This document shows, one piece after another, positions 718-58,193 of a stretch of 64,000 nt of DNA. The stretch is from NCBI GenBank assembly GCA_049521895.1, contig JBEKOJ010000001.1:418717-482716 (forward strand). The letters run 5' to 3'. Under the pieces are notes generated by a model. That model was not told where the DNA came from, did not search any database, and saw only the letters and a program-made list of their open reading frames with translations. Within the stretch, counting starts at the first letter, position 1. Each line of letters begins with the position of its first letter. This stretch comes from Candidatus Saccharimonadales bacterium (GTDB lineage: Bacteria > Patescibacteriota > Saccharimonadia > Saccharimonadales > UBA10212). The position numbers were made by a program, and so were the translations under genes.

Positions 718-1230
718 CTATTTATGCAAGCCCCGTACTTTAGGTCTTATATCAGACTTCCAGCCAGAGGCTTGAAAAATAGCCATGACTACGGCACAGA
801 CCGGCTTTTGTATACAAGTTATACCAACGACCTTCATGTTAACCGGCCCAAAATTTAGATTGCGGGTAGTCTGTAAAGCCTCCAAGCTCGCCTGTATGTC
901 ACGACGCACAGTGCTTTTGTTGGCACCCTCGTGTTCTACAAACAATCCTTGGCCGGATTTTTTGTTTTGGACCCAGCCAATACCAGCCCAGGCTTCAACA
1001 TTGGGGGTGTCCACCCGCGTATCAGCCATAACAACATAGAGTCTGTCGCCCCAGTTACCTGGTTGGGTATCTATCGGCCGGCTGGAAACTTTGACTTTTG
1101 CCCCTAGAGGAATAACAGAGCTGAGTTTAATCAGATTATAATTGGAGACACCGGCCTCGCCTAAAGCGGAGTCAAAAGCGGATAGCTTTGTTGGACCGGT
1201 GCCTACCCCTGATACGATTTGTATATTCAT
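718..1230 (-). CDS. pdaD: pyruvoyl-dependent arginine decarboxylase
   Basis: 170 aa. The N-terminus VSGVGTGPTKLSAFDSAL and the NLIKLSSVIP segment (Ser-Ser self-processing site) are typical of the PvlArgDC family. Confidence 0.8.
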   Translation of the reverse strand: MNIQIVSGVGTGPTKLSAFDSALGEAGVSNYNLIKLSSVIPLGAKVKVSSRPIDTQPGNWGDRLYVVMADTRVDTPNVEAWAGIGWVQNKKSGQGLFVEHEGANKSTVRRDIQASLEALQTTRNLNFGPVNMKVVGITCIQKPVCAVVMAIFQASGWKSDIRPKVRGLHK

Positions 1231-1316
1231 ATGTTTGTTATTTAACCTACTTAAGATAGCATAACAAGAACAACATCTAGACTCCAGTTTTTTAGGAGTG
1301 TAGTATTATTACAGTT

Positions 1317-1682
1317 ATGGTAAAAATTGCGATTGTTGAGGATGATCTGGCAATAGCCCAGATGTACCGCTTAAAATTTGAGGCGGAAGGCTATAAGGTG
1401 GAAATTGCCGAGAACGGCAAGCTAGGCTTGGCCCTATGTGAAGAGATGAAACCTGATATCTTATTGCTGGATTTAATGATGCCGGAAATGAACGGTGACG
1501 AAATGCTGGCCAAGATGCGTAAAACCGACTGGGGTAAAAGTATCAAGGTTATAATTTTGACTAACGTCGGTGAGCAAGAAGCGCCAGAACACCTTAAAAA
1601 TCTAGATGTATCGGCGTTTATAGTTAAGGCTGATATGACGCCCAAGCAGGTGACTGAGCTAGTCAAATCCAAACTTGCCTGA
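1317..1682 (+). CDS. stand-alone response regulator receiver domain (CheY-like)
   Basis: 121 aa. Carries IVEDD acidic pocket, LLLDLMMPEMNG phospho-acceptor Asp context and a conserved K near FIVKA. No output domain. Confidence 0.85.
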   Translation: MVKIAIVEDDLAIAQMYRLKFEAEGYKVEIAENGKLGLALCEEMKPDILLLDLMMPEMNGDEMLAKMRKTDWGKSIKVIILTNVGEQEAPEHLKNLDVSAFIVKADMTPKQVTELVKSKLA

Positions 1683-1713
1683 TTTAGCTCCAAGTGTCAG
1701 GTAGAATGTAGTT

Positions 1714-3159
1714 ATGAAAATAGGGATTGTCGGTTGGGGCTTGGAGAGCCAGAGCGCATTCAGGTATTTTGGCCCTAGCCACGACTACCTGATAGTTAAC
1801 GAGTCAGCGCAGGATAATTTTCCGCCGGAGTCGAACAAGATCAAAGTCCGTTTCCTGGCCAATAAGGCTCCGATTGGAATTCCAGGACAAGTGCAGGATC
1901 TAAGCTATCTGAAGGGCATCGAAGAATGCGATAAGATCATTTATCAGCCCACGGCTTATTTTAACCTCCAGAAGGTTTTTGGCGACAACCCAGAATTTTG
2001 GAAGAAGGCCACTACTGTTTACGATATTTATTTTGAGAATACTCCAACCCAAAATATAATCGGCGTCACCGGCACCAAAGGCAAAGGCACCACATCTACG
2101 CTGATCGCCAAGATACTCGAGGCCAGCGGCAAAACCGTCCATCTTGGCGGCAATATCGGTACGCCCATCTTGGACTTGCTGCCCAGCATTAAAGCAAGTG
2201 ATTGGCTGGTATGGGAGCTGGCTAACTTCCAGCTAAAAGCTGCTTCTTATAGCCCGCATATTGCCGTCTGTTTAATGATTACTGAAGAACATCTGGACTG
2301 GCATCCGAGCATGGAGGATTACCTGGAGGCCAAAAGTAATCTCTTCCGACACCAAAAAGCCGAAGACGTTGCCATTTACTTTGCTAAAAATGAATACTCC
2401 AAAAAAATAGCCGGGTATTCACCCGGTAAAAAAATTCCTTACTACGAACCGCCAGGAGCATACATTCGCGAAGACGGTGTCATTGTGATTGACGAAACAG
2501 AGGTAATGAACAAGAATGAAGTTAAACTACTGGGCGAACATAATTTACAAAATATTTGTGCTGCCCTTACGGTTGTTTTTGAGGCGCAAGGGAGCGTTGA
2601 CCCCAGTAGAATAGTCCATGGCGGAATTCCACAGGGTCAATCCAGTGGAGCTTTAGCCCCGCTAAACGCCGTAGGCGGCTCCACGTGGATTGACAAAGCA
2701 AAAACAGTATTATCTAGCTTTAGCGGCTTAGAACATCGCTTGGAGTTCGTACGGGCCTTAGATGGCGTAAAATATTACAACGATTCTTTTGCCACCACCC
2801 CCGAGTCAGCAGTGGTCGCCCTAAAGACTTTTAGCGCACCAAAGGTTGTCATCTTGGGCGGATCAGACAAGGGTTTGTCCTTTGACCCGCTTGCCGATGA
2901 GGTTGCCAAAGGAAATGTTCGCAAAGCCGTAGCCATCGGGACTACAGCAGATAAAATAGTCAGTCTACTCAAAGAACACGGCTTCACGAATACCATAACT
3001 GGCTTGAATAAAATGACTGATATCGTGGCAGCTGCCCGCGAAGCTTCTCAGCCTGGCGACGTGGTATTACTAAGTACAGGCTGCGCCAGTTTTGGGCTGT
3101 TTAAGGATTATAAAGACCGCGGCGAACAGTTCAAGAAAGCTGTTCAAGCCCAGCAGTGA
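1714..3159 (+). CDS. murD: UDP-N-acetylmuramoylalanine--D-glutamate ligase
   Basis: 481 aa. Shows the Mur ligase P-loop GVTGTKGKGTT, GLEHRLEF and NDSFATTPES motifs in MurD order. Carries an extra ~31-aa segment (see 2597-2694). Confidence 0.9.
   Translation: MKIGIVGWGLESQSAFRYFGPSHDYLIVNESAQDNFPPESNKIKVRFLANKAPIGIPGQVQDLSYLKGIEECDKIIYQPTAYFNLQKVFGDNPEFWKKATTVYDIYFENTPTQNIIGVTGTKGKGTTSTLIAKILEASGKTVHLGGNIGTPILDLLPSIKASDWLVWELANFQLKAASYSPHIAVCLMITEEHLDWHPSMEDYLEAKSNLFRHQKAEDVAIYFAKNEYSKKIAGYSPGKKIPYYEPPGAYIREDGVIVIDETEVMNKNEVKLLGEHNLQNICAALTVVFEAQGSVDPSRIVHGGIPQGQSSGALAPLNAVGGSTWIDKAKTVLSSFSGLEHRLEFVRALDGVKYYNDSFATTPESAVVALKTFSAPKVVILGGSDKGLSFDPLADEVAKGNVRKAVAIGTTADKIVSLLKEHGFTNTITGLNKMTDIVAAAREASQPGDVVLLSTGCASFGLFKDYKDRGEQFKKAVQAQQ
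2597..2694 (+). other. in-frame 93-nt insertion inside murD containing a 16/17-nt inverted repeat, bracketed by TTGAC direct repeats
   Basis: TTGAC occurs at 2597-2601 and 2690-2694, exactly 93 nt apart. The arms are GTCAATCCAGTGGAGC (2636-2651) and GCTCCACGTGGATTGAC (2678-2694). The encoded ~31 aa lie where E. coli MurD, as I recall its sequence, has no residues. Confidence 0.5.
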
Positions 3160-3293: not shown

Positions 3294-3989
3294 CTACTGC
3301 TGGGCAAGCACTCGTTTGAGCTGGGCGATAACCGGTTGTTCCGGCTGCATTACGGTTGCCCTATTGCCCGCGTAACCCCTCAAAAGTTGCTCTATCCAAC
3401 GGTAATGGGTACAGCCCAGGACGATTACATCGGCACCTGCTTCACAAACCTCGTTTACAGTTTTTGCGATTTTTTCGCGGTCTACGTTGTTATTCTCAAT
3501 CATTAACGCCCATTCGCTGCAGTCCGGTTCTAAAACTTTTACACCTTTGGCGTATTTATCTTTTAACCAACGGTAGCGCTCACTACTAAGTGTTCTAGGC
3601 GTGGCACAAACGGCAATTACTCCTGTTTTTGTGGCTTCGGCAGCCGGTTTGACCGCTGGCTCCATACCTACCATCGGTACAGAGAACTCCTGTCTTAGCT
3701 GGGCGATTAAATTAGTGGTAACGGTGTTACAGGCCACCACGATAACTTGGCAATTTTCTTGTATGAATTCTTGGAAGATGGGCTTTACGAAGCTGTGGAT
3801 TTCTTCTATGCTGCGCGATCCATAGGGCAAGTGAGCTTTATCATCCTTATAGATAATTTCTATGCCTGGCAATTCGCGCTCAATAGCTCTGATCACATGC
3901 AGGGCGCCTACGCCGCTATCAAACACACCGATCTTAACCTTGGGCACCCCGCTACCAAAATCTTGATGTTCCGAAATAGAGTTATTCAT
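3294..3989 (-). CDS. murI: glutamate racemase
   Basis: 231 aa. Carries VFDSGVGALHV, VVACNT and LGCTHY catalytic-Cys motifs. Confidence 0.9.
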   Translation of the reverse strand: MNNSISEHQDFGSGVPKVKIGVFDSGVGALHVIRAIERELPGIEIIYKDDKAHLPYGSRSIEEIHSFVKPIFQEFIQENCQVIVVACNTVTTNLIAQLRQEFSVPMVGMEPAVKPAAEATKTGVIAVCATPRTLSSERYRWLKDKYAKGVKVLEPDCSEWALMIENNNVDREKIAKTVNEVCEAGADVIVLGCTHYRWIEQLLRGYAGNRATVMQPEQPVIAQLKRVLAQQ

Positions 3990-4001
3990 TCTCTTCTTCT
4001 C

Positions 4002-5006
4002 TCAGGATTTGGTACGGGGCAAGTTGTCGGCTGCCCGGATGACGTTTTCGAACAAAGCGCAGACCGTCAGGGGGCCGACGCCGCCTTTTTCGGGAGTGAT
4101 TATTAGATCATCGCGTTGGTAAACTTCGGGGGCTAGATCACCGACGGTTTTGCCCGATTCGGAGGCCACGCCGGCATCGACCACCACGGCACCAGTTTTT
4201 ATCATGTCCGGATAAAGCACTGCCGGGCTACCAGTAGCTGTGATAATAACGTCGGCTTTCTTGGTATAGTCTGACAAATTTTTGACTTCGCGGCCGATAA
4301 CTTCAACCTCGTAGCCAGAGGCCTTAAGAATTTTTTCTAGCGGTGCGCCAACCAGCTTACCGCGGCCGACCAGTAAAATATGCTTGCCTGCCAGATCAAC
4401 CCCGTAGCCGGCTAGCAGCCACATAATCGCCATCGGCGTCGCCGGTTCAAACCAGGTTCCTCGCACCGTGACGTCCTGCCTTCTGGCGGAGCCAGAAGCA
4501 CCGTCGTCACTTAAGGTCCGCTGCGGCGTCAAAGACTGCGCTACTCCTTCACCGTATTTCATATACGACTCAGTCTGTTGCCCGTCTTTTCCTTGCACCG
4601 CACTCTTATGCGAGGCCCTGGATTTTGTCAAAGGTGGCCATGGTGCATCTGGGTCACCTAGGGCGTCCACGTCCTTTTGCGGTGCTACCAAATTAACTAT
4701 TTCATCTGTTTGGCTGGGATCTGTAAGCGGTAGTTGGACGATGATACTGTGTATGCTGTCGTCATTACTTAACTTGTTAAGTAATTTTGGCGCGTCTTTC
4801 TGTTGGAGCGTATGAATATCTACATCAATACCGACATCGGCGCCGTATTGCTTTTTAAGCCGGACGTAAGTATTGATAACCGGATCGTCTTTAACCTGTA
4901 CAATTGCCAGCTTGGGCCGTATGCCGCGCCCTCGCAGGCTGCGCACCTGTTTAGCGTGGCGCTCCTTGATAAAACCGGCCAGCTCTTGGCCATTAAGTAT
5001 TTTCAT
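4002..5006 (-). CDS. folD: bifunctional methylenetetrahydrofolate dehydrogenase/cyclohydrolase with a ~55-aa internal insertion
   Basis: 334 aa. Motifs IIVQLPL, KDVDA, PATP, GRGKLVGAPL and GGVGPLT are present. The spacer between KDVD and PxTP is ~72 aa versus ~17 in E. coli FolD as I recall it. Confidence 0.85.
   Translation of the reverse strand: MKILNGQELAGFIKERHAKQVRSLRGRGIRPKLAIVQVKDDPVINTYVRLKKQYGADVGIDVDIHTLQQKDAPKLLNKLSNDDSIHSIIVQLPLTDPSQTDEIVNLVAPQKDVDALGDPDAPWPPLTKSRASHKSAVQGKDGQQTESYMKYGEGVAQSLTPQRTLSDDGASGSARRQDVTVRGTWFEPATPMAIMWLLAGYGVDLAGKHILLVGRGKLVGAPLEKILKASGYEVEVIGREVKNLSDYTKKADVIITATGSPAVLYPDMIKTGAVVVDAGVASESGKTVGDLAPEVYQRDDLIITPEKGGVGPLTVCALFENVIRAADNLPRTKS
4764..4785. repeat. 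hairpin palindrome copy 1 (ATTACTTAAC-TT-GTTAAGTAAT), inside folD
   Basis: Read directly from the sequence: 10-2-10 dyad. It encodes LLNKLSN of FolD on the minus strand. Confidence 0.95.
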
Positions 5007-5014
5007 AGTTCATG

Positions 5015-5091
5015 TGGAGGGCCAGGAGGGACTCGAACCCTCGACATTCTGCTTAAGAGGCAGACGCTCTAACCAGCTGAGCTACTGGCCC
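5015..5091 (-). tRNA. tRNA-Lys (anticodon CTT)
   Basis: Cloverleaf folded by eye. Anticodon arm is TCTGC-CTCTTAA-GCAGA, T-loop is GGTTCGAGTCC, and CCA is encoded. Confidence 0.9.
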
Positions 5092-5156
5092 GCTTTTGGG
5101 CATCCGAATACTAGCACGCTCACCCCTGTTTTGTAAACCGATGATACAATTGCTTC

Positions 5157-6493: not shown

Positions 6494-6838
6494 CTACAGT
6501 ATAGAAGATAGTCCAGTGATTCGTTTATAAGTTCTGGTTCGATGACAATTTGCGCAGACCAATTCACAATTGGCGATTTCTTCTTCTAGCTTTTCAATGC
6601 TGCAATTTTCTATTAGATCGTTTATTGTCGCCGTTTTCTTACCTACGTGATCGAAGTCCATAACGTAGTAAGGATAATTTTTACCGCAGTCGAGGCATGG
6701 GATAACTTCTTTTATGAGATTGATCAGTTCTCTAATGTCTTTTTTTCTTTTTGCTGCCTTTTCAATATAATACTGCCGATTAGCATAGTAATGTCGACGG
6801 ATTGCGGCCCGGCTGTCTTCTATATCTTTGTAGGCCAC
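6494..6838 (-). CDS. HNH endonuclease-like protein
   Basis: 114 aa. The pattern CLDCG...DFDHV...CANCHR matches a Cys4/His-Me finger. Confidence 0.7.
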   Translation of the reverse strand: MAYKDIEDSRAAIRRHYYANRQYYIEKAAKRKKDIRELINLIKEVIPCLDCGKNYPYYVMDFDHVGKKTATINDLIENCSIEKLEEEIANCELVCANCHRTRTYKRITGLSSIL

Positions 6839-6937
6839 GATACCTAATATTTTATCATTTTTAAGGTGTTAATTGGCTATTTTAGCTAATTTTACAATGA
6901 TACAGCACGATTGACGAAGTTAGAACCGTCTTAGTTG

Positions 6938-7663
6938 CTAACTGCTACTTCTAAACCAGCCGTTTTTTGCAACCTTATTCCATATGAATTCGTATAAAAT
7001 CTGATTTCCCTCAGCGCTTAAGTGAAGGCGATCTTTACCGACATTTTGAAGGATCCTAGGCTCCTCGGTTGTATTTGCATAAACTGCACCAACTCTCTTA
7101 GCTGCATCTTGAAATATTTTTGCTACAACTTTTTCTCGTCTTTTTAGGATAGGTCTTAACCACCAGGGAAATATAGTGAGCGTTGACATGTCGCCGGGTC
7201 CCGCAATAACAATTTTAGGACTGTGTCTTTTCATTTTATCGACAAGCTCATAGCAGTGGTGCCGGAATTTAGTTGACGCAAAACCATGCAACACGTCATT
7301 CGACCCAACAATTAGCGCTATCAGGTCCCATCTGCCTTCAATTTGGTCGTTTTTAATATCCGTAATCCACTTACCAAAACCCGCTTCATTAAGATAGATA
7401 ACATGGTGGTTCTTGGCTAACTCATTGGCTATCTTGCTGCCTACTGCGTTGTCAAACTGCTTCATGCCGTGACCGGAGCCGGCACTGTCTCCTAGGACCA
7501 ACAGTTTAAATTTCGGATTTTTTGTATCGCCTAACTCAAAACGCCCTGCTTGATGCGTCTCGCTGTGGGCAAGCTCGTAAGTCCGGTTCAGTTTTGGATA
7601 GGCATAAACGACTGCCCACAAAAGTGCCAACAAAATAAGAACGAGGGCTATAAGAAGTATCAC
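6938..7663 (-). CDS. SGNH/GDSL-type hydrolase with N-terminal membrane anchor
   Basis: 241 aa. Has an N-terminal TM helix, block I LVLGDSAGSG, and GSNDV. Confidence 0.7.
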   Translation of the reverse strand: MILLIALVLILLALLWAVVYAYPKLNRTYELAHSETHQAGRFELGDTKNPKFKLLVLGDSAGSGHGMKQFDNAVGSKIANELAKNHHVIYLNEAGFGKWITDIKNDQIEGRWDLIALIVGSNDVLHGFASTKFRHHCYELVDKMKRHSPKIVIAGPGDMSTLTIFPWWLRPILKRREKVVAKIFQDAAKRVGAVYANTTEEPRILQNVGKDRLHLSAEGNQILYEFIWNKVAKNGWFRSSS

Positions 7664-7708
7664 CTGTTAATAATATCAAAATCTACACGCCTTATTATGG
7701 TTGTGCTT

Positions 7709-7785
7709 TGGTACGCGTGAAGGGATTCGAACCCCCGACCTTTGGTACCGGAAACCAACGCTCTATCCATCTGAGCTACACGCGC
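7709..7785 (-). tRNA. tRNA-Arg (anticodon CCG)
   Basis: Cloverleaf by eye. Anticodon arm is TTGGT-TTCCGGT-ACCAA. CCA is encoded. Confidence 0.9.
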
Positions 7786-7809
7786 TTAACAGAGGTTATT
7801 ATATCATTT

Positions 7810-8373
7810 TTAAGCGCTATTTTCAGGGGTGCCGGTGTCTGGTGCAATCAATTTCTTAGGCAGACCTGACGATTGTTTTTCGGTTTGGGACAGCGTGACT
7901 TGCAGAATTTGCAGCACGCTTTTAGCGTGCTCGCGGCTCATGCCAACCCGGGCAACGCTGGCAGGTTTGGCGTTGGGGCCGGTACTTTGCATAAAATTCA
8001 TTACCACGCCGTAGTTATTGACCATAATGTCCACGATGTCGGTAAACAAAATTCGTGGATCATGATTGCCGGCGGGCAGTTGGGACTGTGGTTTATCATT
8101 GACTACCCGCATAGAAGAGACCCGGCTTATACCATAGCCGGCCAGTCTCCAAAGCCTGACAGCTTCATCGTCACGAACGCCAAAATGGCTAATGAGTAGC
8201 AGCAAGACGTCTTCGGACGGCCGGTTATGGCCAAGCTCAAAACTAGCCAATTGTTTAACGTCAATCTCCACGGCACCAGAGGCCTCGGCCAAGCTTTCGC
8301 GGGCGCGCTCGCGCAACGCTTTAAGTGTCTTACCAAGTTGCTGCATGGAACCCTCTGGTTGTGTTTTGCTCAT
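7810..8373 (-). CDS. XRE-type helix-turn-helix protein with uncharacterised C-terminal domain
   Basis: 187 aa. The N-terminal segment LGKTLKALRERARESLAEASGAVEIDVKQLASFELG is HTH-like. The gene is divergent from murB. Confidence 0.65.
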   Translation of the reverse strand: MSKTQPEGSMQQLGKTLKALRERARESLAEASGAVEIDVKQLASFELGHNRPSEDVLLLLISHFGVRDDEAVRLWRLAGYGISRVSSMRVVNDKPQSQLPAGNHDPRILFTDIVDIMVNNYGVVMNFMQSTGPNAKPASVARVGMSREHAKSVLQILQVTLSQTEKQSSGLPKKLIAPDTGTPENSA

Positions 8374-8416
8374 TAGCGTTTATTGTATCACTACTTTTAG
8401 CCGTATAATTGACGTA

Positions 8417-9445
8417 GTGAACTTAAAGCAAAACGTCAGCTTGGCAAACTATAGCACCATGCGTTTGGGCGGCAACGCCCGTTATTTTGCCGAGGCTGCG
8501 TCTCTGCAGGATGTAGAGCAACTTGGCAAATGGGCTAAAGAGCAAGCTTTGCCGATAATTACCGTCGGCGGCGGCAGTAACATTGTCTGGCGGGACGAGG
8601 GTTTTGACGGCTTGGTGATAGCTGACTGCATCAAAGGTCGGGAGATAGTTAACAAAGACGGCAATGCAACGGTTAAGATTGGCGGCGGCGAAAACTGGGA
8701 CGAAGTTGTTGGCTGGAGCGTAGAACAGGGCCTAAGTGGTATTGAAGCGTTATCTTTGATCCCAGGTACGGCCGGCGCCACACCAGTACAAAATGTTGAA
8801 GCCTACGGCCAGCAAATTGCTGACTCATTGCAAAAAGTCCTGGTTTACGATTTTCGAGACAATACGTTTCGCGAGTTGACTCCTGACCAGTGTAGTTTAA
8901 GCTACCGCAACAGCCGTTTTAAGGATGTTGACCACGGCCGGTTTCTAATTTGCGCCATCTGGCTTAAGCTCAACCGCGGGCAGATGAGCCCGCCCTTCCA
9001 CCATGGCTTGCAAACGTACATTGACCAACGTGGTATTACCGATTTTTCGCCAGTTAGTATCCGCCGAGCAGTTATAGATATCCGCAGTGCTAAACTCCCC
9101 GACCCCGCCAAAATGGCTAACAATGGCTCCTTTTTTAAAAACCCGTTTGTCCCACAAGAGCAATTTGAGAAGTTATCTAGACAGTTTCCGGATATTCTCA
9201 ACTATCCAGCCAATGATGGCAGTATCAAACTTTCGGCTATGTGGCTAATAGAGCATGCCGGTTTTAAGGCCGGTTACCGCGACGAGCCTACCGGCATGGC
9301 TTTGTGGCCCAAGCACGCTTTGGTATTTATAAACGAGCACGCTAAATCCACTGCCGACCTGTTAGCTTTCAGGCAGAAGATTGTTGACAAAGTCCAAGAA
9401 AAATTCGGCATCACACTCGAGCAAGAACCCGAATTACTGCCCTGA
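8417..9445 (+). CDS. murB: UDP-N-acetylenolpyruvoylglucosamine reductase
   Basis: The FAD-binding N-terminus is LANYSTMRLGGNARYF...GGGSNIV, and the family C-terminus is present. I start it at the in-frame GTG 8417, downstream of a TATAAT at 8404-8409, because the 8192 ATG lies inside the divergent gene. Confidence 0.85.
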   Translation: MNLKQNVSLANYSTMRLGGNARYFAEAASLQDVEQLGKWAKEQALPIITVGGGSNIVWRDEGFDGLVIADCIKGREIVNKDGNATVKIGGGENWDEVVGWSVEQGLSGIEALSLIPGTAGATPVQNVEAYGQQIADSLQKVLVYDFRDNTFRELTPDQCSLSYRNSRFKDVDHGRFLICAIWLKLNRGQMSPPFHHGLQTYIDQRGITDFSPVSIRRAVIDIRSAKLPDPAKMANNGSFFKNPFVPQEQFEKLSRQFPDILNYPANDGSIKLSAMWLIEHAGFKAGYRDEPTGMALWPKHALVFINEHAKSTADLLAFRQKIVDKVQEKFGITLEQEPELLP

Positions 9446-10714
9446 ATTATCGCTGGGAAGCGGAAATTGTTTGCAAAATTCCCGTATTTGTCTTTTTAAG
9501 CCGGCCAGTTTTTTAGAATTCTGGGGGTTGGCGATAGCCTCATCAATCCATTGAGCTATTTGAACCATTTCTTTCTCTTTCATGCCGCGGGTAGTTAATG
9601 CCGGAGTACCCAGACGAATACCGGAGGGACTAAACGGCGAGCGTGGATCAAAAGGCACCGTATTTTTATTTACCGTAATCCCGGCTCGGCCCAAAGCTTT
9701 TTCAGCGTCAGCTCCAATGATTTTTTTATTCGTTAAGTCTATCAACAACAGATGATTGTCGGTACCGCCAGTGACCAGTTTATAGTCTTTTTTAAGAAGT
9801 TCTTCGGCTAAAGTCTTGGCATTTTTGACAATCTGCTGACCATATTTCTTAAAACTCGGTTGAGCTGCTTCATATAAAGCCACGGCAATGGCGGCTGTTT
9901 GATGGTTGTGCGGCCCACCCTGCAAGCCTGGAATGATTGCCCTATCAATTAAGGTTGGCAGGTTCTCGGGTTTACGCTCGACCGCCTTGAGAGGATTAGA
10001 AGGATTACCGTTGCATAAAATCATCGCCCCGCGCGGCCCGCGCAAAGTTTTGTGGGTTGTGGTGGTGATCACATCAGCGTATCCAACGGGCGAAGGGTGA
10101 GCACCGGCTACCACCAAACCAGCGATATGCGCAATATCAGCAACCAGCCAGGCTTTAGAAATATCGGCGATTTCTCTAAGCTTTGCCCAATCAAATATTC
10201 TCGGGTAGGCAGTTGCTCCTACAAAAATAAGCTTTGGTTTTTCAGTTTTAACCATTTTTGTCATTTCACCGTAGTCCAAATAGCCGTCTTTACCCGTATG
10301 GTACTGAACGGAGTTGTAAAGCGTGCCGGAAAAATTGACTTTTAGCCCATGCGTCATATGGCCGCCATAATAGAGATGCATACCCATAATGGTGTCTCCT
10401 GGGTCAACCAACGCGAAGTAAACAGCTTGGTTGGCCGGTGAACCAGAATATGGCTGAACGTTGGCGTGGCTAACACCAAACAGTTTTTTAGCCCTATCGC
10501 GGGCGAGATTTTCCACGGCGTCAACGCACTCACAGCCTCCGTAATATCGCATTCCGGGATAACCCTCAGAATATTTATCGGTCAGCCGCGAACCTAGAGC
10601 TTTTAGAACCTCGCCGGAGGTATGATTCTCGCTGGGAATCATTTCCAAGCCCTCGCTTTGACGCCTTTTTTCGGCGGCAATCAATTTTGCTACCTCTTTA
10701 TCTTTCATCGCCAA
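9434..10714 (-). CDS. glyA: serine hydroxymethyltransferase
   Basis: 426 aa. Contains the PLP-Lys motif TTTTHKTLRGPRG and SENHTS. Confidence 0.95.
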   Translation of the reverse strand: MAMKDKEVAKLIAAEKRRQSEGLEMIPSENHTSGEVLKALGSRLTDKYSEGYPGMRYYGGCECVDAVENLARDRAKKLFGVSHANVQPYSGSPANQAVYFALVDPGDTIMGMHLYYGGHMTHGLKVNFSGTLYNSVQYHTGKDGYLDYGEMTKMVKTEKPKLIFVGATAYPRIFDWAKLREIADISKAWLVADIAHIAGLVVAGAHPSPVGYADVITTTTHKTLRGPRGAMILCNGNPSNPLKAVERKPENLPTLIDRAIIPGLQGGPHNHQTAAIAVALYEAAQPSFKKYGQQIVKNAKTLAEELLKKDYKLVTGGTDNHLLLIDLTNKKIIGADAEKALGRAGITVNKNTVPFDPRSPFSPSGIRLGTPALTTRGMKEKEMVQIAQWIDEAIANPQNSKKLAGLKRQIREFCKQFPLPSDNSGQ

Positions 10715-12652: not shown

Positions 12653-12729
12653 TGCCCCGGTAGCTCAGCTGGATAGAGCAGGAGACTTCTAAGCTCAAGG
12701 CCGCAGGTTCGAATCCTGCCCGGGGTACC
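12653..12729 (+). tRNA. tRNA-Arg (anticodon TCT)
   Basis: Cloverleaf by eye. Loop is CTTCTAA and T-arm is GCAGG-TTCGAAT-CCTGC, with CCA encoded. The anticodon stem has only three Watson-Crick pairs (G27/A43 and A31/G39 are mismatched). Confidence 0.8.
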
Positions 12730-12734
12730 ACAAA

Positions 12735-12760
12735 AATGCCCAGCCTCGCGTTGGGCATTT
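12735..12760 (+). terminator. rho-independent terminator after tRNA-Arg(TCT)
   Basis: ATGCCCA-GCCTCGCGT-TGGGCAT stem-loop followed by TTTTT. Confidence 0.7.
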
Positions 12761-12813
12761 TTGTGGTTCTCTGGTAGATTCGGTTCTGCGGCTCGACAGC
12801 TTTAGCTGGCGAT

Positions 12814-12898
12814 AGCCGCAGGTTCGGTCATCCAGCTCGCCTGCAGGAGCTTGCTTCGAGAACGAGCGCAGATGTGCGCTCACCCTGCCCGGGGTACC
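12814..12898 (+). repeat. second, interrupted copy of the tRNA-Arg(TCT) 3' part (GCCGCAGGTTCG + 57-nt insert + CCTGCCCGGGGTACCA)
   Basis: The 12 nt before and the 16 nt after the insert are identical to tRNA positions 12703-12714 and 12718-12729... in order. The insert (12826-12882) replaces only the last three T-loop bases. Confidence 0.85.
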
Positions 12899-13003
12899 AA
12901 AGTTCCGTGCCTGCCAACCTTAAATACGCCTAGTTAGCATTAGAGATCGAGAAATCACAGACCGGTAGTGGGGTGATTTGGCCTCTTTTGTTAGTATGTA
13001 AGT

Positions 13004-15170: not shown

Positions 15171-15299
15171 TTCAGATTATTTTTCAAATTTTCAAAGCGG
15201 CGGTCTACTAACCGTTTGAAAAATTGAGAGGAGGAGCATAGCGCTAAGCCGAAGCTTTTGCGAAAAAGCAAAACGAGGCCGGCGCGCAAGCTCCGACGA
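15165..15299 (+). ncRNA. L-type structured leader, copy 1 (precedes tRNA-His)
   Basis: Contains an A/T-rich 12-bp hairpin (15185-15226), a purine block GAGAGGAGG and a closing helix GGAGC/GCTCC. It ends in CTCCGACGA directly at the tRNA 5' end. Homologous copies lie at 44612, 47933 and 55360. Confidence 0.55.
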
Positions 15300-22766: not shown

Positions 22767-23230
22767 TGAATCCGGCGGTCTATTAATATCTGTAGTGTTT
22801 TAATCACACCCTCTATAATTGCCAAGATAGCGCCGCCAACTACCGCACCTGTATAGAATCGTTGAGATCTACCGTACGCTTTCAAAGAATCATCTACTAA
22901 ACCAGCGGGGTATATAAAAAACTTCTTACCTATAAAGTGGCGGCCTTTAATAGAAGTTACATATAAAGTCCAGTTACTACTAAGCCAATCTATGTATCCG
23001 TGTTCCTTAGATGCAACTAATATTGCGGCAACAGTACTCTCGCTTGGTTTTCTGAGTTTCCGAGATTTTATGTAGTCTTGAGTGAGGGCGAGCAATGCCT
23101 CGTTTTGTGCCTTGAAGGTTTGGGTGTGAGAAAGTATCTCGTACCTATTAGAATCTATGTACCTTACTAACTTGTACATATCTTTCATCTCTGCCATACG
23201 CTGAATTATACCTCTTGTCTGCGCAATCAT
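22763..23230 (-). CDS. hypothetical IS passenger protein with C-terminal hydrophobic helix
   Basis: 155 aa. Its start overlaps the transposase stop by 4 nt (ATGA), implying co-translation with the transposase. Confidence 0.55.
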   Translation of the reverse strand: MIAQTRGIIQRMAEMKDMYKLVRYIDSNRYEILSHTQTFKAQNEALLALTQDYIKSRKLRKPSESTVAAILVASKEHGYIDWLSSNWTLYVTSIKGRHFIGKKFFIYPAGLVDDSLKAYGRSQRFYTGAVVGGAILAIIEGVIKTLQILIDRRIH

Positions 23231-24111
23231 GTCTTACTCCGTGCAGATATGCTTACCTTGTCCATCAAAGCCCAAAACATAGGCTGAAAATCGTTTCTAT
23301 GGCTCTGCCTAAATGCATATTCGTTCACGTAGTTTTGTAAATGCTGAGAGCTAACGTGTCTATATACGCCCCGCATTCCACGCTTCATGTTACCCCAAAA
23401 GTTCTCAATGTTTTGGGTGTGAGTATCACCATCAACGTAATGCCTTTTGCCATGCTGGATAGTCTCATGGTAATAGCCTTTTTTATAAAGGCGTTTGTAG
23501 GAGCGGTGCTCATCAGAATAGATGGTAGACTCTCGCTGGATGTTCTCTTCAACTTCCCGTAATAACACTAACTCACCAGCAGACTTAACGTGCTTGGCTC
23601 TGACTACTCCGCCACGCTCGGCCATACCAAAGACCACAGGATTATCCTTCCTTGACTTATGAGGCTTACGAATGGTAGAGCGCTTTAGCGGGTCGGCGTG
23701 CATATAAGTTTCATCAATCTCAATTTCACCGTATAATCGCTCGCCATCATCACTCATCATAGATCTAATCTGGTGAAACATCCGCCACGCGGTTTTGTAA
23801 GTTACCCCTGTTTCACGCTCTAACTGTTTGGCTGAGATTCCGGCTCTAGTAGCGGCCATAATGAATATAGCCTCAAACCATATAGTTAAAGGTGTACTAG
23901 ATTTGTGGAAGATGGTATTTGCAGTAGGAGATGTAGAACCACCACAGTATTCGCAAGCATAAACTTTCATACTCCTTCGTTTGTGGTGAGGAGTTATCTT
24001 CTCACACTTCTTGCAAGTTATGCCCTCTGGGTACAGATATTCTTTCAACCATTCCAGACAAGCATCCTCATTTGGGAAATCTATCTTTAACTGTTGTCGT
24101 GTATATTTCAT
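23227..24111 (-). CDS. IS1595-family (ISXO2-like) DDE transposase
   Basis: 294 aa. Has an N-terminal Cys-rich zinc ribbon (CKKCE...CEYCG), an HTH (GISAKQLERETGVTYKTAWRM), EIDETY and DEHRSY acidic motifs. Confidence 0.9.
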   Translation of the reverse strand: MKYTRQQLKIDFPNEDACLEWLKEYLYPEGITCKKCEKITPHHKRRSMKVYACEYCGGSTSPTANTIFHKSSTPLTIWFEAIFIMAATRAGISAKQLERETGVTYKTAWRMFHQIRSMMSDDGERLYGEIEIDETYMHADPLKRSTIRKPHKSRKDNPVVFGMAERGGVVRAKHVKSAGELVLLREVEENIQRESTIYSDEHRSYKRLYKKGYYHETIQHGKRHYVDGDTHTQNIENFWGNMKRGMRGVYRHVSSQHLQNYVNEYAFRQSHRNDFQPMFWALMDKVSISARSKT

Positions 24112-38476: not shown

Positions 38477-38642
38477 ATCTTCGCACCGCCCGTCCTGTTG
38501 CCTGGCAAAGCCAGGCATGCCGGCGGACTTCTGGCGCATTACTACGTCAGCGTCTCCGTTGCTCGTTCGCCGTATGTTAGATACGACTTACTGCGCTACT
38601 CGTCGCTTCCTTGTACTGTATCCAGGTGCGAAGATCTACTCT
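38470..38642. repeat. 18-bp perfect inverted repeats enclosing 137 bp (MITE-like or long-stem RNA)
   Basis: AGAGTAGATCTTCGCACC (38470-38487) is the exact reverse complement of 38625-38642. An internal 7-bp hairpin GCCTGGC-AAA-GCCAGGC spans 38500-38516. Confidence 0.8.
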
Positions 38643-47594: not shown

Positions 47595-47670
47595 AATTAA
47601 CAGGGGTGAGTTTTGATGTAAATCAAAAAGAGACTGGTTTTGGAACCAATCTCTATCTGTAATTATCACT

Positions 47671-47774
47671 TGGTAGCGGGGAGAGGACGGCGTCAGGGCT
47701 AACACGCCTGACTATATCCGCTCCTGCGTTACTCGGAATAAATTCCTGCGTGACTTAGTCGCTACACGAACCTC
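47671..47774 (-). repeat. second, interrupted copy of the tRNA-fMet 3' part (GAGGTTCG + 80-nt insert + CCTCTCCCCGCTACCA)
   Basis: The 16-nt 3' end is identical to the tRNA. The T-stem 5' strand is repeated at 47767-47774. The insert spans 47687-47766. Confidence 0.8.
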
Positions 47775-47823
47775 CCGCTCACTACGTTCGCTCAACGAGG
47801 TTCTCGCCCTTCTCCGAACCATG

Positions 47824-47850
47824 AAAAAAGACCCATCAGAAGATGAGTCA
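47824..47850 (-). terminator. rho-independent terminator after tRNA-fMet
   Basis: On the minus strand: GACTCATC-TTCT-GATGGGTC followed by TTTTTT. Confidence 0.7.
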
Positions 47851-47857
47851 TTTTTCA

Positions 47858-47932
47858 TGGTAGCGGGGAGAGGACTCGAACCTCTGACCTCGTGGTTATG
47901 AGCCACGCGAGCTGCCACTGCTCCACCCCGCG
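47858..47932 (-). tRNA. initiator tRNA-fMet (anticodon CAT)
   Basis: 5' CGCGGGGTGGAGCAG as in bacterial initiators. Position 1:72 is a C/U mismatch. CCA is encoded. Confidence 0.85.
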
Positions 47933-55478: not shown

Positions 55479-55664
55479 AAGAGAAATTTTGGACGCCCAA
55501 ACTCACACACTTGGATGCAGTGCAAGACGCCGCCGAGGAACGCCCGCAGGTGTATTACAATACATTGAGGACGTACCGCCGGCGAGCAACGTAGCAGTGC
55601 GCCAAAAAGCCAGCAGGGTTTACGGCTTTGCCGGGAAGCAGTGTTGGCTGGTGTGTGAATTTGG

Positions 55665-55740
55665 GGGCCCATAGCTCAGTTGGTAGAGCAGAGGCCTTTT
55701 AAGCCTCGTGTCGCGGGTTCGAGACCCGCTGGGCCCTCCA
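55665..55740 (+). tRNA. tRNA-Lys (anticodon TTT)
   Basis: Cloverleaf by eye. Anticodon arm is GAGGC-CTTTTAA-GCCTC. CCA is encoded. Confidence 0.9.
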
Positions 55741-55748
55741 ATGAAAGT

Positions 55749-55775
55749 GCCCGGCCTTGCGCCGGGTATTTTCAT
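55749..55775 (+). terminator. rho-independent terminator after tRNA-Lys(TTT)
   Basis: CCCGGC-CTTGC-GCCGGG stem-loop followed by TATTTT. Confidence 0.65.
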
Positions 55776-55827
55776 TGGTTGTCTTAGTCGGTTTCGGTTC
55801 CGCGACCAAGACGCAAAGCGGATTGTA

Positions 55828-55916
55828 GTCGCGGGTTCGGTCATCCAGGTCGCGCGCAGTCCGCCTGAAGCGGACGAGCACGGCTGCAGATGTGCGCTGT
55901 CCCGCTGGGCCCTCCA
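55828..55916 (+). repeat. second, interrupted copy of the tRNA-Lys(TTT) 3' part (GTCGCGGGTTCG + 61-nt insert + CCCGCTGGGCCCTCCA)
   Basis: The flanks are identical to the tRNA. The insert (55840-55900) shares GTCATCCAGSTCGC and GCAGATGTGCGCT blocks with the insert at 12826-12882. Confidence 0.85.
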
Positions 55917-56021
55917 ACCATAAGCATTTTGACCTCTATAATTAACAGGCTACAATCTTATATAATTGCACACAACAAGCTAATTATTGACAACAGTTTA
56001 TAATTATGCTTATATGTGTGT

Positions 56022-56261
56022 ATGTCTCGGGAAAGAAATTCCACTTACTACAGGGATTATGCTGATATGGCACAAGAAATGATTAATGGCTTAAGCGATG
56101 GTGATATGCCACACGTAGGAACACTGCAATATATGTACGGCATTAGTGAAGCGGGTCGTGTGCAAGCAGAACTTGTTATGGACCATATTTTGGCTGACCC
56201 TCAACTAACAGAACAGTTTGACGCTACTGTTACTGCGTTTCAAGCAGAACAAGCGGCTTAA
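56022..56261 (+). CDS. hypothetical small acidic protein (island cassette 1)
   Basis: ORF in the A+T-rich cassette. TTGACA-N17-TTATAT (55987-56015) ends 6 nt before this ATG, so the mRNA may be leaderless. The ORF-track start is 56016. Confidence 0.4.
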   Translation: MSRERNSTYYRDYADMAQEMINGLSDGDMPHVGTLQYMYGISEAGRVQAELVMDHILADPQLTEQFDATVTAFQAEQAA

Positions 56262-56271
56262 TCTTGATAAT

Positions 56272-56499
56272 ATGGAAAGCAGGATTGGTTGGCTACATAA
56301 TACTTCAGGGGATGAAATACCTGTAGATCCGACATTAATTACAGATACATCTGGTGAATTAGTGGACGTAACGCCACAACAACTAGAGCAAATACTTGCC
56401 AATGACCCTGACTCTATTTTGCAGTTAATGGCTTGGGGTAGTTTTCAGAGCAGACAAGAAGCTGAGGCATTTCTTGCTGAGAGCGAGCAAGCCTCTTAA
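56272..56499 (+). CDS. hypothetical small acidic protein (island cassette 1)
   Basis: 75-aa ORF starting at MESRIG, 8 nt after the previous stop. No recognisable motif. Confidence 0.4.
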   Translation: MESRIGWLHNTSGDEIPVDPTLITDTSGELVDVTPQQLEQILANDPDSILQLMAWGSFQSRQEAEAFLAESEQAS

Positions 56500-56506
56500 T
56501 TTCGGC

Positions 56507-56534
56507 TGCTACAGCCTTCACGGTGGCCCTCCAC
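56507..56534 (+). repeat. 28-nt cassette-boundary repeat TGCTACAGCCTTCACGGTGGCCCTCCAC, copy 1
   Basis: Identical to 57660-57687. Its 3' half resembles the tRNA-Lys acceptor end (TGGGCCCTCCA). Confidence 0.9.
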
Positions 56535-56647
56535 AGATAAGACCTAGTGCATCTTCCAAACAGATACTCCCGCCCAGTAATTAATTGACAATCTAGGCAA
56601 GTGATAGTATTCTTAACTTTTTAAAGAGTCGAGGTAGTATTGTTACC

Positions 56648-57613
56648 ATGACAGAACGCAATCCGCAGTTATCGCAGAAGGTTATTGATCTCGCTTGGGA
56701 AGCTGCACAGGCCAGTGACCGAGCATTCGATGAGCGTGATCTAGCCAACTTTAAAATACTAAGTGATATGGCTGCAACTGTTATGCTATTGCCCACTACC
56801 GCGTTTAATTTTCAACGTGCTGAAATTCCATCTGCCCAAGTACCGGAAATTGACGTTGAAACAACTGAACGGCTGGAGGTTCTACCCACTGATTACCGTA
56901 AATTAGTACTAAACCGCTATACCGAAAAAAATGAAGTAGTAGGTACCCAAATTAATGCCAACACCCTGCCTGAACACTATCGGCTGCCGGGGTTAAGTGA
57001 ATTTATAGAAGAGGTCATAGCTTTAGCTCCGGTCTATGAAGCATTTATCAAAAATAGCTGGGAGCCAGAAGTAGTTTTTGTGCCCAACAACCTAAGCCTC
57101 GAGCAGTGGGACAGCCTGCTCATGGGCCATACATTGCCAAATGGCCGTAAGTCCAAGGGCCTATCACGTGCCTGGAGAGTTAATGAAGTTTATGACCAAG
57201 GAACCGACGCTAACCCATGGTATTTAGCTATTGTATGTAGTACTGAAAGACCCCCGCTTACTAATGTAAGTCCTGACGGTGAACACGGCTCTCGAGCCAA
57301 TAAAACCATTAGAATATTGTCAGAACTGCCAAACATAGCTGACGTCTCATCTCCAGAAGCCATTATTAATCAAGCTAGTCCATCAGAAGAAATGTATTGT
57401 GCTTTTCAGCTTGCTCGCTTAGAGCGTGGTGAGCAACCCGTAGACACCGAGACCTGGACCATTGGCAAAGAAAATATTAGCCTGGGATCTCTGTTCTTTA
57501 GCTTTCCTATATACAAGCGGCAGGTTTTCTCTTTCTTTAGCGATCGTGCTCACCGCCTTGAAGGTAGCGGTGTCCGCCCCTCAGCTAACGGTAAAGATCT
57601 AGTTCTCGGCTAG
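56648..57613 (+). CDS. hypothetical protein (island cassette 2)
   Basis: 321-aa ORF with no motif I recognise. It is preceded by TAATTAATTGACAA, a promoter-like sequence homologous to that of cassette 1. Confidence 0.55.
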   Translation: MTERNPQLSQKVIDLAWEAAQASDRAFDERDLANFKILSDMAATVMLLPTTAFNFQRAEIPSAQVPEIDVETTERLEVLPTDYRKLVLNRYTEKNEVVGTQINANTLPEHYRLPGLSEFIEEVIALAPVYEAFIKNSWEPEVVFVPNNLSLEQWDSLLMGHTLPNGRKSKGLSRAWRVNEVYDQGTDANPWYLAIVCSTERPPLTNVSPDGEHGSRANKTIRILSELPNIADVSSPEAIINQASPSEEMYCAFQLARLERGEQPVDTETWTIGKENISLGSLFFSFPIYKRQVFSFFSDRAHRLEGSGVRPSANGKDLVLG

Positions 57614-57659
57614 GGACATAATTACTAATATGTAGGTGTTGGCTACCCTGAATTGTAGT

Positions 57660-57687
57660 TGCTACAGCCTTCACGGTGGCCCTCCAC
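57660..57687 (+). repeat. 28-nt cassette-boundary repeat, copy 2
   Basis: Identical to 56507-56534. It is followed by the terminator hairpin at 57692-57716. Confidence 0.9.
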
Positions 57688-57691
57688 GGAA

Positions 57692-57716
57692 AGCTCATCA
57701 TTTGGATGAGTTTTTA
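57692..57716. terminator. terminator hairpin between the island and the convergent membrane-protein gene
   Basis: CTCATC-ATTTG-GATGAG stem-loop followed by TTTTT. Confidence 0.65.
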
Positions 57717-58193
57717 TTTGTGTCTCTTAATATAATGACTTCTACTGAACCAGACCAGCAATAGGCTTACTAGAGTACCAATACCAATAATTATTGCTTC
57801 TTGCTTTTCTAGCTGGTTCCAAATGCTAAGGTTGCTAAAATTAATGTTCGCCCAGTTGCTCAGTAGCGGACCGACCGTTAGGGCCAGCAAACCGCCGCTA
57901 GCCAGAGCTGGTACGATTTGTAAGTAAAAACGTGAATGTGTGGCGTGTTTTCTAGTCAGTAAAAGCGTTATCGCCAGCGGCACGGCAATCATTATTAGAT
58001 TGATGGCGTTGCCGCTTAGCAGCTGGCCTGATGACACCAAGTGGCTCAACCAATGCTGCGTGCTACCGCTAGCATAGGTGGCAGCTGTAAAGCCGGTGCA
58101 GAGCGCCAAAAATCCCAGGGCCGCATCGGCCCGTAACAAAAAAGTTAACACCAGAGGCGCAGCAAGCAGAGCAATCAGTACCAATTCGGCCAT
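57714..58193 (-). CDS. polytopic membrane protein, unknown function
   Basis: 159 aa with four to five hydrophobic helices. Confidence 0.55.
   Translation of the reverse strand: MAELVLIALLAAPLVLTFLLRADAALGFLALCTGFTAATYASGSTQHWLSHLVSSGQLLSGNAINLIMIAVPLAITLLLTRKHATHSRFYLQIVPALASGGLLALTVGPLLSNWANINFSNLSIWNQLEKQEAIIIGIGTLVSLLLVWFSRSHYIKRHK

Follow-up and report, generated by a model that had tools for sequence, protein, structure and literature searches.

What looks like an undescribed integron-like gene-capture site behind tRNA-Lys in an uncultured Saccharibacterium, with no adjacent recombinase

The 64,000-nucleotide stretch of DNA analysed here (the window), from an uncultured Saccharibacterium (TM7; candidate phyla radiation, CPR), carries a tRNA-Lys(UUU) gene flanked by the genes for ComEC, YebC, and RimK and followed on the same strand by a structured module and two short gene cassettes, each of which ends in a repeat that shares its last bases with the tRNA (Table 1). 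The nearest relatives of the window in the genome collection are all metagenome-assembled genomes of Candidatus Saccharibacteria. A first-pass annotation of the sequence had described the repeat as an identical 28-mer present twice, likened its 3′ part to the end of tRNA-Lys, and assigned two small acidic open reading frames (ORFs) to the first unit and one of 321 aa to the second, all of which we could confirm. The 28-mer (TGCTACAGCCTTCACGGTGGCCCTCCAC) is found in exact copies at 56507-56534 and 57660-57687, both of them intergenic, with no third match in the window at up to three mismatches and none expected by chance (100 shuffles). The last 9 nt of tRNA-Lys(UUU), GGCCCTCCA, form the core common to all of the repeats and occur in the 64 kb only in both tRNA-Lys genes and at 55908, 56525, and 57678; with the end of the other gene, tRNA-Lys(CUU), the 28-mer agrees in 10 of 10 bases (TGGCCCTCCA). 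Because comparison with other loci puts the cassette boundary right after the CCA, the two repeat-bounded units stand but their proposed limits had to be moved by one base.

Table 1. Positions of the features discussed, in the window and at the tRNA-Lys sites of element-free relatives (L numbers are our designations for loci in other contigs).
Sequence	Feature	Position	Strand	Basis
Window	tRNA-Lys(CUU), second potential target	5015-5091	-	ARAGORN
Window	IS1595-family DDE transposase gene	23227-24111	-	precomputed Pfam DDE_Tnp_IS1595
Window	tRNA-Lys(UUU), encoded CCA	55665-55740	+	ARAGORN; Rfam tRNA 70.3 bits
Window	Terminator-like hairpin directly 3′ of tRNA-Lys(UUU)	55738-55778	+	hairpin scan
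Window	Module, 176 nt ("unit 0", type A)	55741-55917	+	repeats D2/D7, alignment A7, RNAalifold, model R2
Window	Cassette 1, 617 nt, opens with (A)CCATAAGCATTTTGACC (55918-55934)	55917-56533	+	locus comparison
Window	Cassette 1 ORF, acidic orphan, 79 aa (81 aa from GTG at 56016), isoelectric point 4.2	56022-56261	+	
Window	Cassette 1 ORF, acidic orphan, 75 aa, isoelectric point 4.05	56272-56499	+	
Window	Short-form element (~37 nt), TAATTTCGGCTGCTACAGCCTTCACGGTGGCCCTCCA, holds 28-mer copy 1	56497-56533	+	R1
Window	Cassette 2, 1153 nt, opens with CAGATAAGACC	56534-57686	+	locus comparison
Window	Cassette 2 ORF, 321 aa	56648-57613	+	
Window	Full-length element (~62-65 nt), CTAATATGTAGGTGTTGGCTACCCTGAATTGTAGTTGCTACAGCCTTCACGGTGGCCCTCCA, holds 28-mer copy 2	57625-57686	+	R1, alignments A3/A4
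Window	Terminator-like hairpin right behind last element	57689-57715	+	hairpin scan
L007	tRNA-Lys and variable segment, inverted relative to window	6575-10001		
L010	Downstream of tRNA-Lys(UUU): 302-aa ORF (dehydrogenase-like, by eye only), partial tRNA-end repeat, other genes			
L011	Downstream of tRNA-Lys(UUU): one 295-aa gene			
L012	Downstream of tRNA-Lys(UUU): ORFs of 216, 218, and 98 aa			
L013	Downstream of tRNA-Lys(UUU): one 217-aa ORF, resembles the peptidase-S51 gene of the window			

The 28-mer is only the 3′ core of a longer conserved element of ~65 nt; even within the window, the similarity of the two copies reaches leftwards over 43 nt (86%). When the last 20 nt of the repeat were used to scan metagenomes, as searching for the 28-mer elsewhere had been suggested, 21 loci were returned, three of them GC-rich chance matches. 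The 18 genuine loci amount to 17 distinct sequences (16 contigs and the window), since L036 and L046 are the same DNA, and in the 16 other contigs, from peat and groundwater metagenomes, the same element closes unrelated cassettes. This recurrence, the chance expectation of zero, and the intergenic position of both copies refute the idea that the 28-mer arose by chance or through duplication of the end of some ordinary gene, which we regard as practically out of the question. The consensus of the element is CTGCTAATATGTAgCTGtTGGCTACCCTGAATtGCgGTTGCTACAGCCTTCACGGTGGCCCTCCA, with 29 invariant columns in alignment A3. A covariance model (R1), built from 19 copies, recognized 30 across the 17 distinct sequences: four in L026, three each in L029, L030, and L040, and two each in L044, L041, L038, L036/L046, and the window. 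It found none in the relatives collected by their ComEC (L007-L013), and among the ~60 genes of the 64 kb it found the element only at this locus, behind tRNA-Lys. The full-length copy of the window scored 89.7 bits (57617-57690) and the short form only 24.3 bits; a short form recurs in L041 (6501-6566). The 3′ 17 nt (TTCACGGTGGCCCTCCA) are near-invariant, including in copies not picked by the search pattern, whereas the housekeeping genes of element-bearing contigs share only 64-77% DNA identity, and the element must therefore be under strong sequence constraint or have spread recently.

A possible fold of the element has a 7-bp stem (GGCUACC with GGUGGCC), further stems inside it, and CUCCA as an unpaired tail (-22 kcal/mol, z about -2 to -2.6, 92.7% of cells paired), and the element is mostly co-oriented with the upstream ORF. 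Both features would fit a role at the end of a transcript, where a tRNA-like stem tailed by CCA would serve processing, stabilization, or termination, in which case the arrays would have arisen by RecA-dependent exchange through the repeats and the tRNA. The sequences past the CCA are often of tRNA-trailer or terminator type, and one motif found there, AGCATAAGCATTTTGACCTCT, also stands behind a tRNA-Gly in L050. RecA, ComEC, and type IV pilus genes are present in the window, Saccharibacteria are reported to be naturally competent (preprint PMC10187176), which fits such exchange, and exchange of this kind also accounts for the absence of a recombinase. We nevertheless consider a transcript end rather unlikely. 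Covariation in the element was not above that of shuffles (56 of 500), with just two pairs changing on both sides, and the short form, in cassette 1 of the window as in L041, has retained the 3′ core but not the 5′ strand of the main stem; the element is therefore more likely a DNA recognition site than an RNA structure. Its confinement to the position behind tRNA-Lys within 64 kb and the lack of any Rfam 15 match (searches of the window and seven array loci, also at E-value thresholds, matched only tRNAs, neither element nor module) also speak against a general transcript end, and homologous exchange leaves unexplained why the first junction lies exactly at the tRNA-Lys CCA of two isoacceptors.

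Two other roles for the element were considered and rejected. Its TGnTAATAT stretch does not qualify as an independent promoter, as there is no conserved -35 and the TG is missing in the window copy. With only two copies recognized by R1 in 64 kb, it is not a genome-wide uptake sequence or a repetitive extragenic palindromic (REP)-type repeat, nor does it show, within those 64 kb, the many scattered intergenic copies of a dispersed repeat of the REP or miniature inverted-repeat transposable element (MITE) type.

Between the tRNA and cassette 1 lies the module, which consists of a terminator hairpin, a stem (H1), a conserved 61-nt insert, and 17 nt that repeat the tRNA 3′ end exactly. An interrupted copy of the tRNA end had been noticed ahead of the first unit; it is real and larger than described, with 12 nt of the T-arm (55828-55839) and 17 nt of the 3′ end (55901-55917) copied exactly and split by the 61-nt insert (55840-55900), itself a three-stem rod. 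In H1, an upstream segment (55795-55806) pairs over 11 bp with the copied 5′ strand of the T-stem (55828-55839). Cassette 1 begins right behind the CCA of the module (55914-55916); it is thus behind this copy of the tRNA end, rather than behind the tRNA itself, that the cassettes of the window are inserted. Homologous modules were found behind tRNA-Lys in L013, behind an element in L030, and behind tRNA-Arg(UCU) in the window, each bearing the T-stem and 3′ end of its own tRNA. RNAalifold predicted 44 pairs from these four copies, 13 with compensatory changes, and a model built from them (R2) gave the tRNA-Lys module of the window 171 bits and also picked weaker modules of type B in L045, L041, and L040 and, within the window, behind tRNA-Met.

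The modules behind tRNA-Arg(UCU) (12654-12730; module 12731-12900, plus strand) and tRNA-Met (47858-47932; module 47667-47857, minus strand) each comprise a terminator hairpin, a structured region, and an exact 16-17-nt copy of their own tRNA's 3′ end, the former sharing the insert GTCATCCAG...GCAGATGTGCGCT, and the module stem covaries with tRNA identity. These tRNA-linked modules are candidates for a new structured element. A permuted transfer-messenger RNA or an odd tRNA was rejected as the source of the interrupted copy, since ARAGORN and Rfam returned nothing and the acceptor sequence is that of tRNA-Lys.

Arrays of two to four elements are present in nine loci, with 378-1491 nt between successive CCA ends. 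Upstream of the elements, and on their strand, the window and L045 have a tRNA-Lys(UUU) gene, L037 and L040 a tRNA-Lys(CUU) gene. L038, L041, and L046 are at the locus of ComEC, a 160-aa membrane protein, and RimK, where relatives have tRNA-Lys(UUU), and L027 lies just before folD, which is the tRNA-Lys(CUU) locus. This second site can be seen both empty and filled: in the window, folD begins 8 nt past the CCA of tRNA-Lys(CUU), and in L037 the same junction holds a cassette for a 217-aa methyltransferase with its element, beyond which the original trailer, on a degenerate end, lies displaced in the direction of folD. Behind the last element of an array there is typically a terminator hairpin like the one that trails tRNA-Lys, joined in L030 and L041 by the entire post-tRNA module; insertion of cassettes at the tRNA CCA would give this arrangement, since it would push the old trailer outwards. 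In the window, the hairpin behind the last element faces the convergent gene for a 159-aa membrane protein (57714-58193, minus strand).

The breakpoints are equally precise where arrays can be compared with each other. L031 and L035 agree in every base of a 79-nt stretch that runs through the element, and they differ from the first base past the CCA. L029 and L044 have an element-cassette-element stretch in common (75% identity), behind which one continues with another cassette and the other with a terminator. The start of cassette 2 also stands behind an element in L034, with a different cassette upstream, and about 12 of 29 cassettes, including cassette 1 of the window, open with a related motif, (A)GCATAAGCAnTTTGAC. 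At the left-most junction of an array the sequence is still of tRNA type (CCCGCTGGGCCCTCCA), at later ones of element type, which places the exchange inside G(G)CCCTCCA. Judged by their sequences, the two units of the window belong to a widespread cassette family of Saccharibacteria.

Cargo proteins matched glyoxalase, ABM, YCII, MazG-like, nucleotidyltransferase, Asp/Glu racemase, S-adenosylmethionine methyltransferase, and DUF805 families and a protein with a pilin-type N-terminus, and many had no family match. Pilin-like N-termini (GF(T/S) and a hydrophobic helix) were seen in cargo within or beside the arrays of L026 (57-794, minus strand; a weak N_methyl match), L040 (1569-2828, minus), L028 (1-333, minus), and L034 (424-1239, plus), and variable surface or pilus proteins may be common cargo.

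That no recombinase lies in the window, as the first-pass annotation stated, holds for tyrosine and serine recombinases, which family searches did not find in the flanking genes or window ORFs tested; the IS1595-family DDE transposase gene is the sole gene of transposase or recombinase type that we saw there. Nor was an integrase found in the window cassettes or in 20 cargo ORFs from other arrays. In L046 (contig Ga0187892_10003540), a tyrosine recombinase of 326 aa (PF00589, 6e-20; 1061-2041, minus strand) is encoded 5.3 kb upstream of the first element, and this region may represent the same integration system in a full-size form that has its integrase. A tblastn search with the L046 integrase found no homolog in the window; the enzyme had no relatives in viral contigs, and its phage matches were only distant generic tyrosine recombinases (24-30% identity). 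An MvaI/BcnI-type restriction-modification pair (3527-5151, plus strand) lies next to the integrase, and both are just upstream of the cassette-end elements beside ComEC.

The L046 region, in which an element is preceded by more than 7 kb with a tyrosine integrase and a restriction-modification system, would suit an origin of the cassettes as decay remnants. On this view, two larger integrase-bearing elements of one family integrated in turn at the tRNA-Lys-type site and each lost its integrase and most genes, leaving immobile scars with attR-type ends and a few genes, a CIME-type relic (cis-mobilizable element) in the strict sense. Tandem accretion followed by decay is a documented route to integrase-less elements at tRNA genes (PMC5704250), the element of cassette 1 is truncated (24 bits), and the locus is fixed in the window species. 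Such a relic is an unlikely origin for these units. The ~25 cassettes in the 17 distinct sequences are uniformly small (0.4-1.5 kb), and none has a recombinase gene or recombinase-like ORF. Neutral scars should not be as conserved as the 3′ half of the element, which is near-invariant across genomes with core genes that differ by 25-35%, and with only ~50 nt from the junction to the next promoter-like site or ORF, precise deletions would have been needed repeatedly.

A trace of the cassettes on extrachromosomal DNA, which the earlier reading had proposed to look for, was not found: the locus as a whole had no blastn match in phage or plasmid collections, and patterns derived from the element returned from viral contigs either nothing or GC-rich coding sequence unrelated to it. 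HUH transposases, TnpB, and reverse transcriptases were likewise absent from the window and cargo ORFs tested, which bears on movement through a single strand or an RNA template, either by an HUH transposase (IS200/IS605- or RAYT-like) acting in trans or by template-switching of a reverse transcriptase at the CCA. Junctions always exactly past the CCA, no target duplication beyond the shared core, a hairpin-forming end 17 nt from the boundary, GTAG/CTAC motifs inside the element, and the cassette-start motif behind the CCA of a tRNA-Gly would all suit such movement. Unlike IS200/IS605 ends, however, the left and right ends of the cassettes have no common hairpin sequence, and the cassettes hold promoter-like sequence upstream of their ORFs, which an RNA copy would lack. 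We therefore think movement of this kind very unlikely. Quite improbable, too, is a gene-capture platform proper to Saccharibacteria that needs no linked classical integrase and works by folded single-strand or RNA-templated capture at tRNA 3′ ends, perhaps coupled to DNA uptake or a template-switching reverse transcriptase, with the tRNA-Lys, tRNA-Arg, and tRNA-Met modules as landing pads.

The explanation to which we lean, as probable though far from secure, is that these are cassettes without an integrase of their own, put in by site-specific recombination at the GGCCCTCCA core by an unlinked recombinase. Each cassette is closed on its 3′ side by the ~65-nt element, which has its last 9 nt in common with tRNA-Lys and would serve for attachment. 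A circular or otherwise free cassette would recombine through this core with the 3′ end of tRNA-Lys or with its copy in a module, in a site-specific reaction for which the enzyme, most likely a tyrosine recombinase, would be encoded elsewhere. Insertion would leave a tRNA-type end on the left and the cassette's own element and the old trailer on the right. As insertion would regenerate the target, later cassettes would line up in tandem, the most recent being the one closest to the tRNA-type end. The shared core, the tRNA-type left and element-type later junctions, the displaced trailer, and the regenerated target together make up the pattern to be expected from site-specific recombination between a site on the cassette and a tRNA-end target. 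The proposal in the first-pass annotation of serial accretion at a regenerating tRNA attB is borne out in so far as there are repeat-bounded cassettes in arrays behind tRNA-Lys, with breakpoints at the CCA and with empty and filled sites; in the window, however, the insertion point is the module's copy and not the tRNA, and accretion, which was not seen within the species, is suggested by comparison between species.

Several observations weigh against site-specific insertion of mobile cassettes. The locus of 2151 nt is 100% identical in six contigs of the window species and 99.9% identical in a seventh, and gene order is the same in all 23-24 contigs read per protein. Cassette gain or loss across strains, which had been expected to be informative, was thus not seen, and with locus and gene order fixed there is no evidence of current mobility; it is comparison between genomes, and that only, which suggests that the cassettes move. 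Only in L046 might a recombinase be linked to an array, with the left boundary and the tRNA outside the sequence analysed, and no excised circle or attP-type junction was seen in these contig-level data. The link to tRNA-Lys is direct in only four loci and by synteny in ~5 more, because most contigs are short. An ABM-like gene has opposite orientations relative to the elements in L026 and L045, an arrangement not predicted from one fixed attachment site, and some ORFs run antisense to the element. Finally, homologs of the 321-aa protein occur elsewhere without a flanking element, two of them in ordinary chromosomal neighborhoods of glycan metabolism.

In relatives without the element, what lies downstream of tRNA-Lys(UUU) differs in every genome (Table 1), and these differing gene sets make the tRNA-Lys site a general hot spot. 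In L007, which is the closest relative in the genome collection (ComEC 60% identical), the variable genes are between the tRNA and ComEC and not between the tRNA and RimK.

Among known processes, the insertion of integron cassettes and the tandem accretion of integrase-less elements (PMC5704250) come closest. Integrons comprise the IntI integrase, attI, and cassettes bounded by attC sites, and also occur as sedentary chromosomal integrons and as clusters of attC sites lacking integron-integrases (CALIN arrays). Their attC sites are imperfect palindromes conserved in structure rather than sequence, with R″/L″...L′/R′ boxes and a GTTRRRY junction core. The layout had been called integron-like, and the arrays do resemble integrons in that short, mostly single-gene cassettes stand in tandem at one chromosomal platform, in that a hairpin-capable, recombination-type element closes each cassette and the insertion site is regenerated, and in that the cargo consists of small enzymes and proteins with no assigned function. 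There is no intI beside the array; in place of attI, a tRNA gene or the copy of a tRNA end serves as platform; and the closing element is conserved in sequence and ends in the 3′ end of tRNA-Lys, with the junction after ...CCCTCCA, no GTTRRRY core, and covariation within that of shuffles. Integron cassettes are promoterless and share a common Pc, whereas those described here appear, from their sequences, to bring promoter-like sites (although the scan was not enriched), and some ORFs are antisense. With neither intI nor attC, the arrays fall outside the definition of integrons.

Islands that integrate into tRNA genes are likewise marked at their distal boundary by a directly repeated tRNA 3′ end, here the GGCCCTCCA core and the 17-nt copy, but such islands carry an integrase, and the lack of one inside the element excludes a classical tRNA island. 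Closer are cis-mobilizable elements (CIMEs), which retain attL and attR and lack integration and transfer genes (PMC5704250). Those described, such as the ICESt1-related ones, are decayed integrative and conjugative elements (ICEs) or integrative and mobilizable elements (IMEs) of several kb to tens of kb, for which a related autonomous element is known (PMC5704250). Like CIMEs, the present units have direct repeats of the tRNA 3′ end on their flanks, have no integrase, and are stacked in tandem as by site-specific integration into a regenerated att site; unlike CIMEs, they are numerous and uniform at 0.4-1.5 kb, have a dedicated conserved end of 65 nt, and have no parental autonomous element in the phage and plasmid collections or viral contigs. 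Formally, they are CIME-like units, but far smaller and more uniform, and with that dedicated conserved end.

Small recombinase-free modules with short conserved sites of ~28 bp that use a host-encoded recombinase and form tandem arrays at one site are likewise known among Xer-dependent elements, namely integrative mobile elements exploiting Xer (IMEX), such as CTX phage, and the pdif modules of Acinetobacter plasmids. The target here is the end of a tRNA and not the replication terminus, and a dif-like site (11-bp inverted arms and a 6-bp centre) was rejected because the left arm TGCTACAGCCT and the reverse-complemented right arm GTGGAGGGCCA show no similarity. The ssrA-specific genomic islands of Dehalococcoides (PMC3146451) reportedly share with the present arrays the tandem arrangement at one small-RNA gene, a reduced genome, and boundary repeats of the 3′ end of that gene; they are reportedly large and described with recombinase genes of their own.

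Few mobile elements have been described in Saccharibacteria and other CPR bacteria, whose genomes are tiny, and how they gain accessory genes is poorly understood. In searches of the literature on Saccharibacteria or Patescibacteria for cassettes, integrons, tRNA-Lys, and genomic islands, whose journal coverage was incomplete, we came upon nothing that describes such a system, and the cassettes look like an undescribed integron-like gene-capture site with no adjacent recombinase. If this is true, the site would correspond in function to integrons, of which literature searches turned up none in this phylum. The array would then mark where strain-specific genes sit, including those for pilin-like surface proteins, which may affect attachment to host bacteria. 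The 65-nt element would also serve as a tag for mining cassettes from metagenomes and might offer a natural insertion site for genetic tools in the newly tractable Saccharibacteria.

The proteins encoded in the window cassettes gave little away in the remote homology searches that had been recommended. None of the three matched Pfam, PHROG, or PADLOC, and the two small ones found, among 5.8 billion proteins, matches only from their own species. The 321-aa protein does belong to a family, with ~200 cluster representatives; a profile search of the PDB with this family found nothing, and the AlphaFold2 model of the protein, with a predicted local distance difference test (pLDDT) score of 49, was too poor for use. 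Distant members of the family (P0109, P0123, and P0128) have the C-terminal region joined to a protease domain of the trypsin-like or caspase type. Closer homologs (~40% identity) are encoded between glycosyltransferase and GH130 genes in the long metagenome contigs L015 and L016.

A further homolog (P0003) lies in L050, where the cassette-start motif AGCATAAGCATTTTGACCTCT stands directly behind the CCA of a tRNA-Gly(GCC) (144-220; motif region 210-260). The homolog lies 650 nt downstream, and its stop is followed by ...GACGCACCA and a terminator. Related cassettes may thus use the ends of other tRNAs.

Two properties ascribed to the units in the first-pass annotation proved less marked than they had seemed. 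The TTGACA stretches said to open each unit as a homologous promoter do exist, at 55981-55994 and 56578-56592, but these are 64 and 44 nt inside the units; promoter-like sites were placed at 55929-55956 in cassette 1 and 56585-56613 in cassette 2, and the scan as a whole was not enriched (5 found as compared to 3.9 expected from shuffles), which makes the promoters a weak argument. The units were also said to be visibly A+T-rich. Their GC contents (0.415 and 0.452, as compared to a window mean of 0.474) are indeed slightly shifted, but weakly so, at the 5th and 19th percentiles of windows of the same size, and the apparent contrast arises mostly because the tRNA and the module alongside are GC-rich.

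A GC-rich repeat of ~110-150 nt is dispersed in these genomes and recalls palindromic elements that insert into coding regions. In the window it is found at 4450-4598 and 55508-55616 and more weakly at 15182-15235 and 38545-38616, and elsewhere in L027 (897-1065) and L046 (8319-8428 and 10072-10168). One copy lies in the 300-nt leader between ComEC and tRNA-Lys, another at the 5′ end of ComEC in L046, and a third in frame within folD (4002-5006, minus strand), which has ~60 residues more than the folD of L037.

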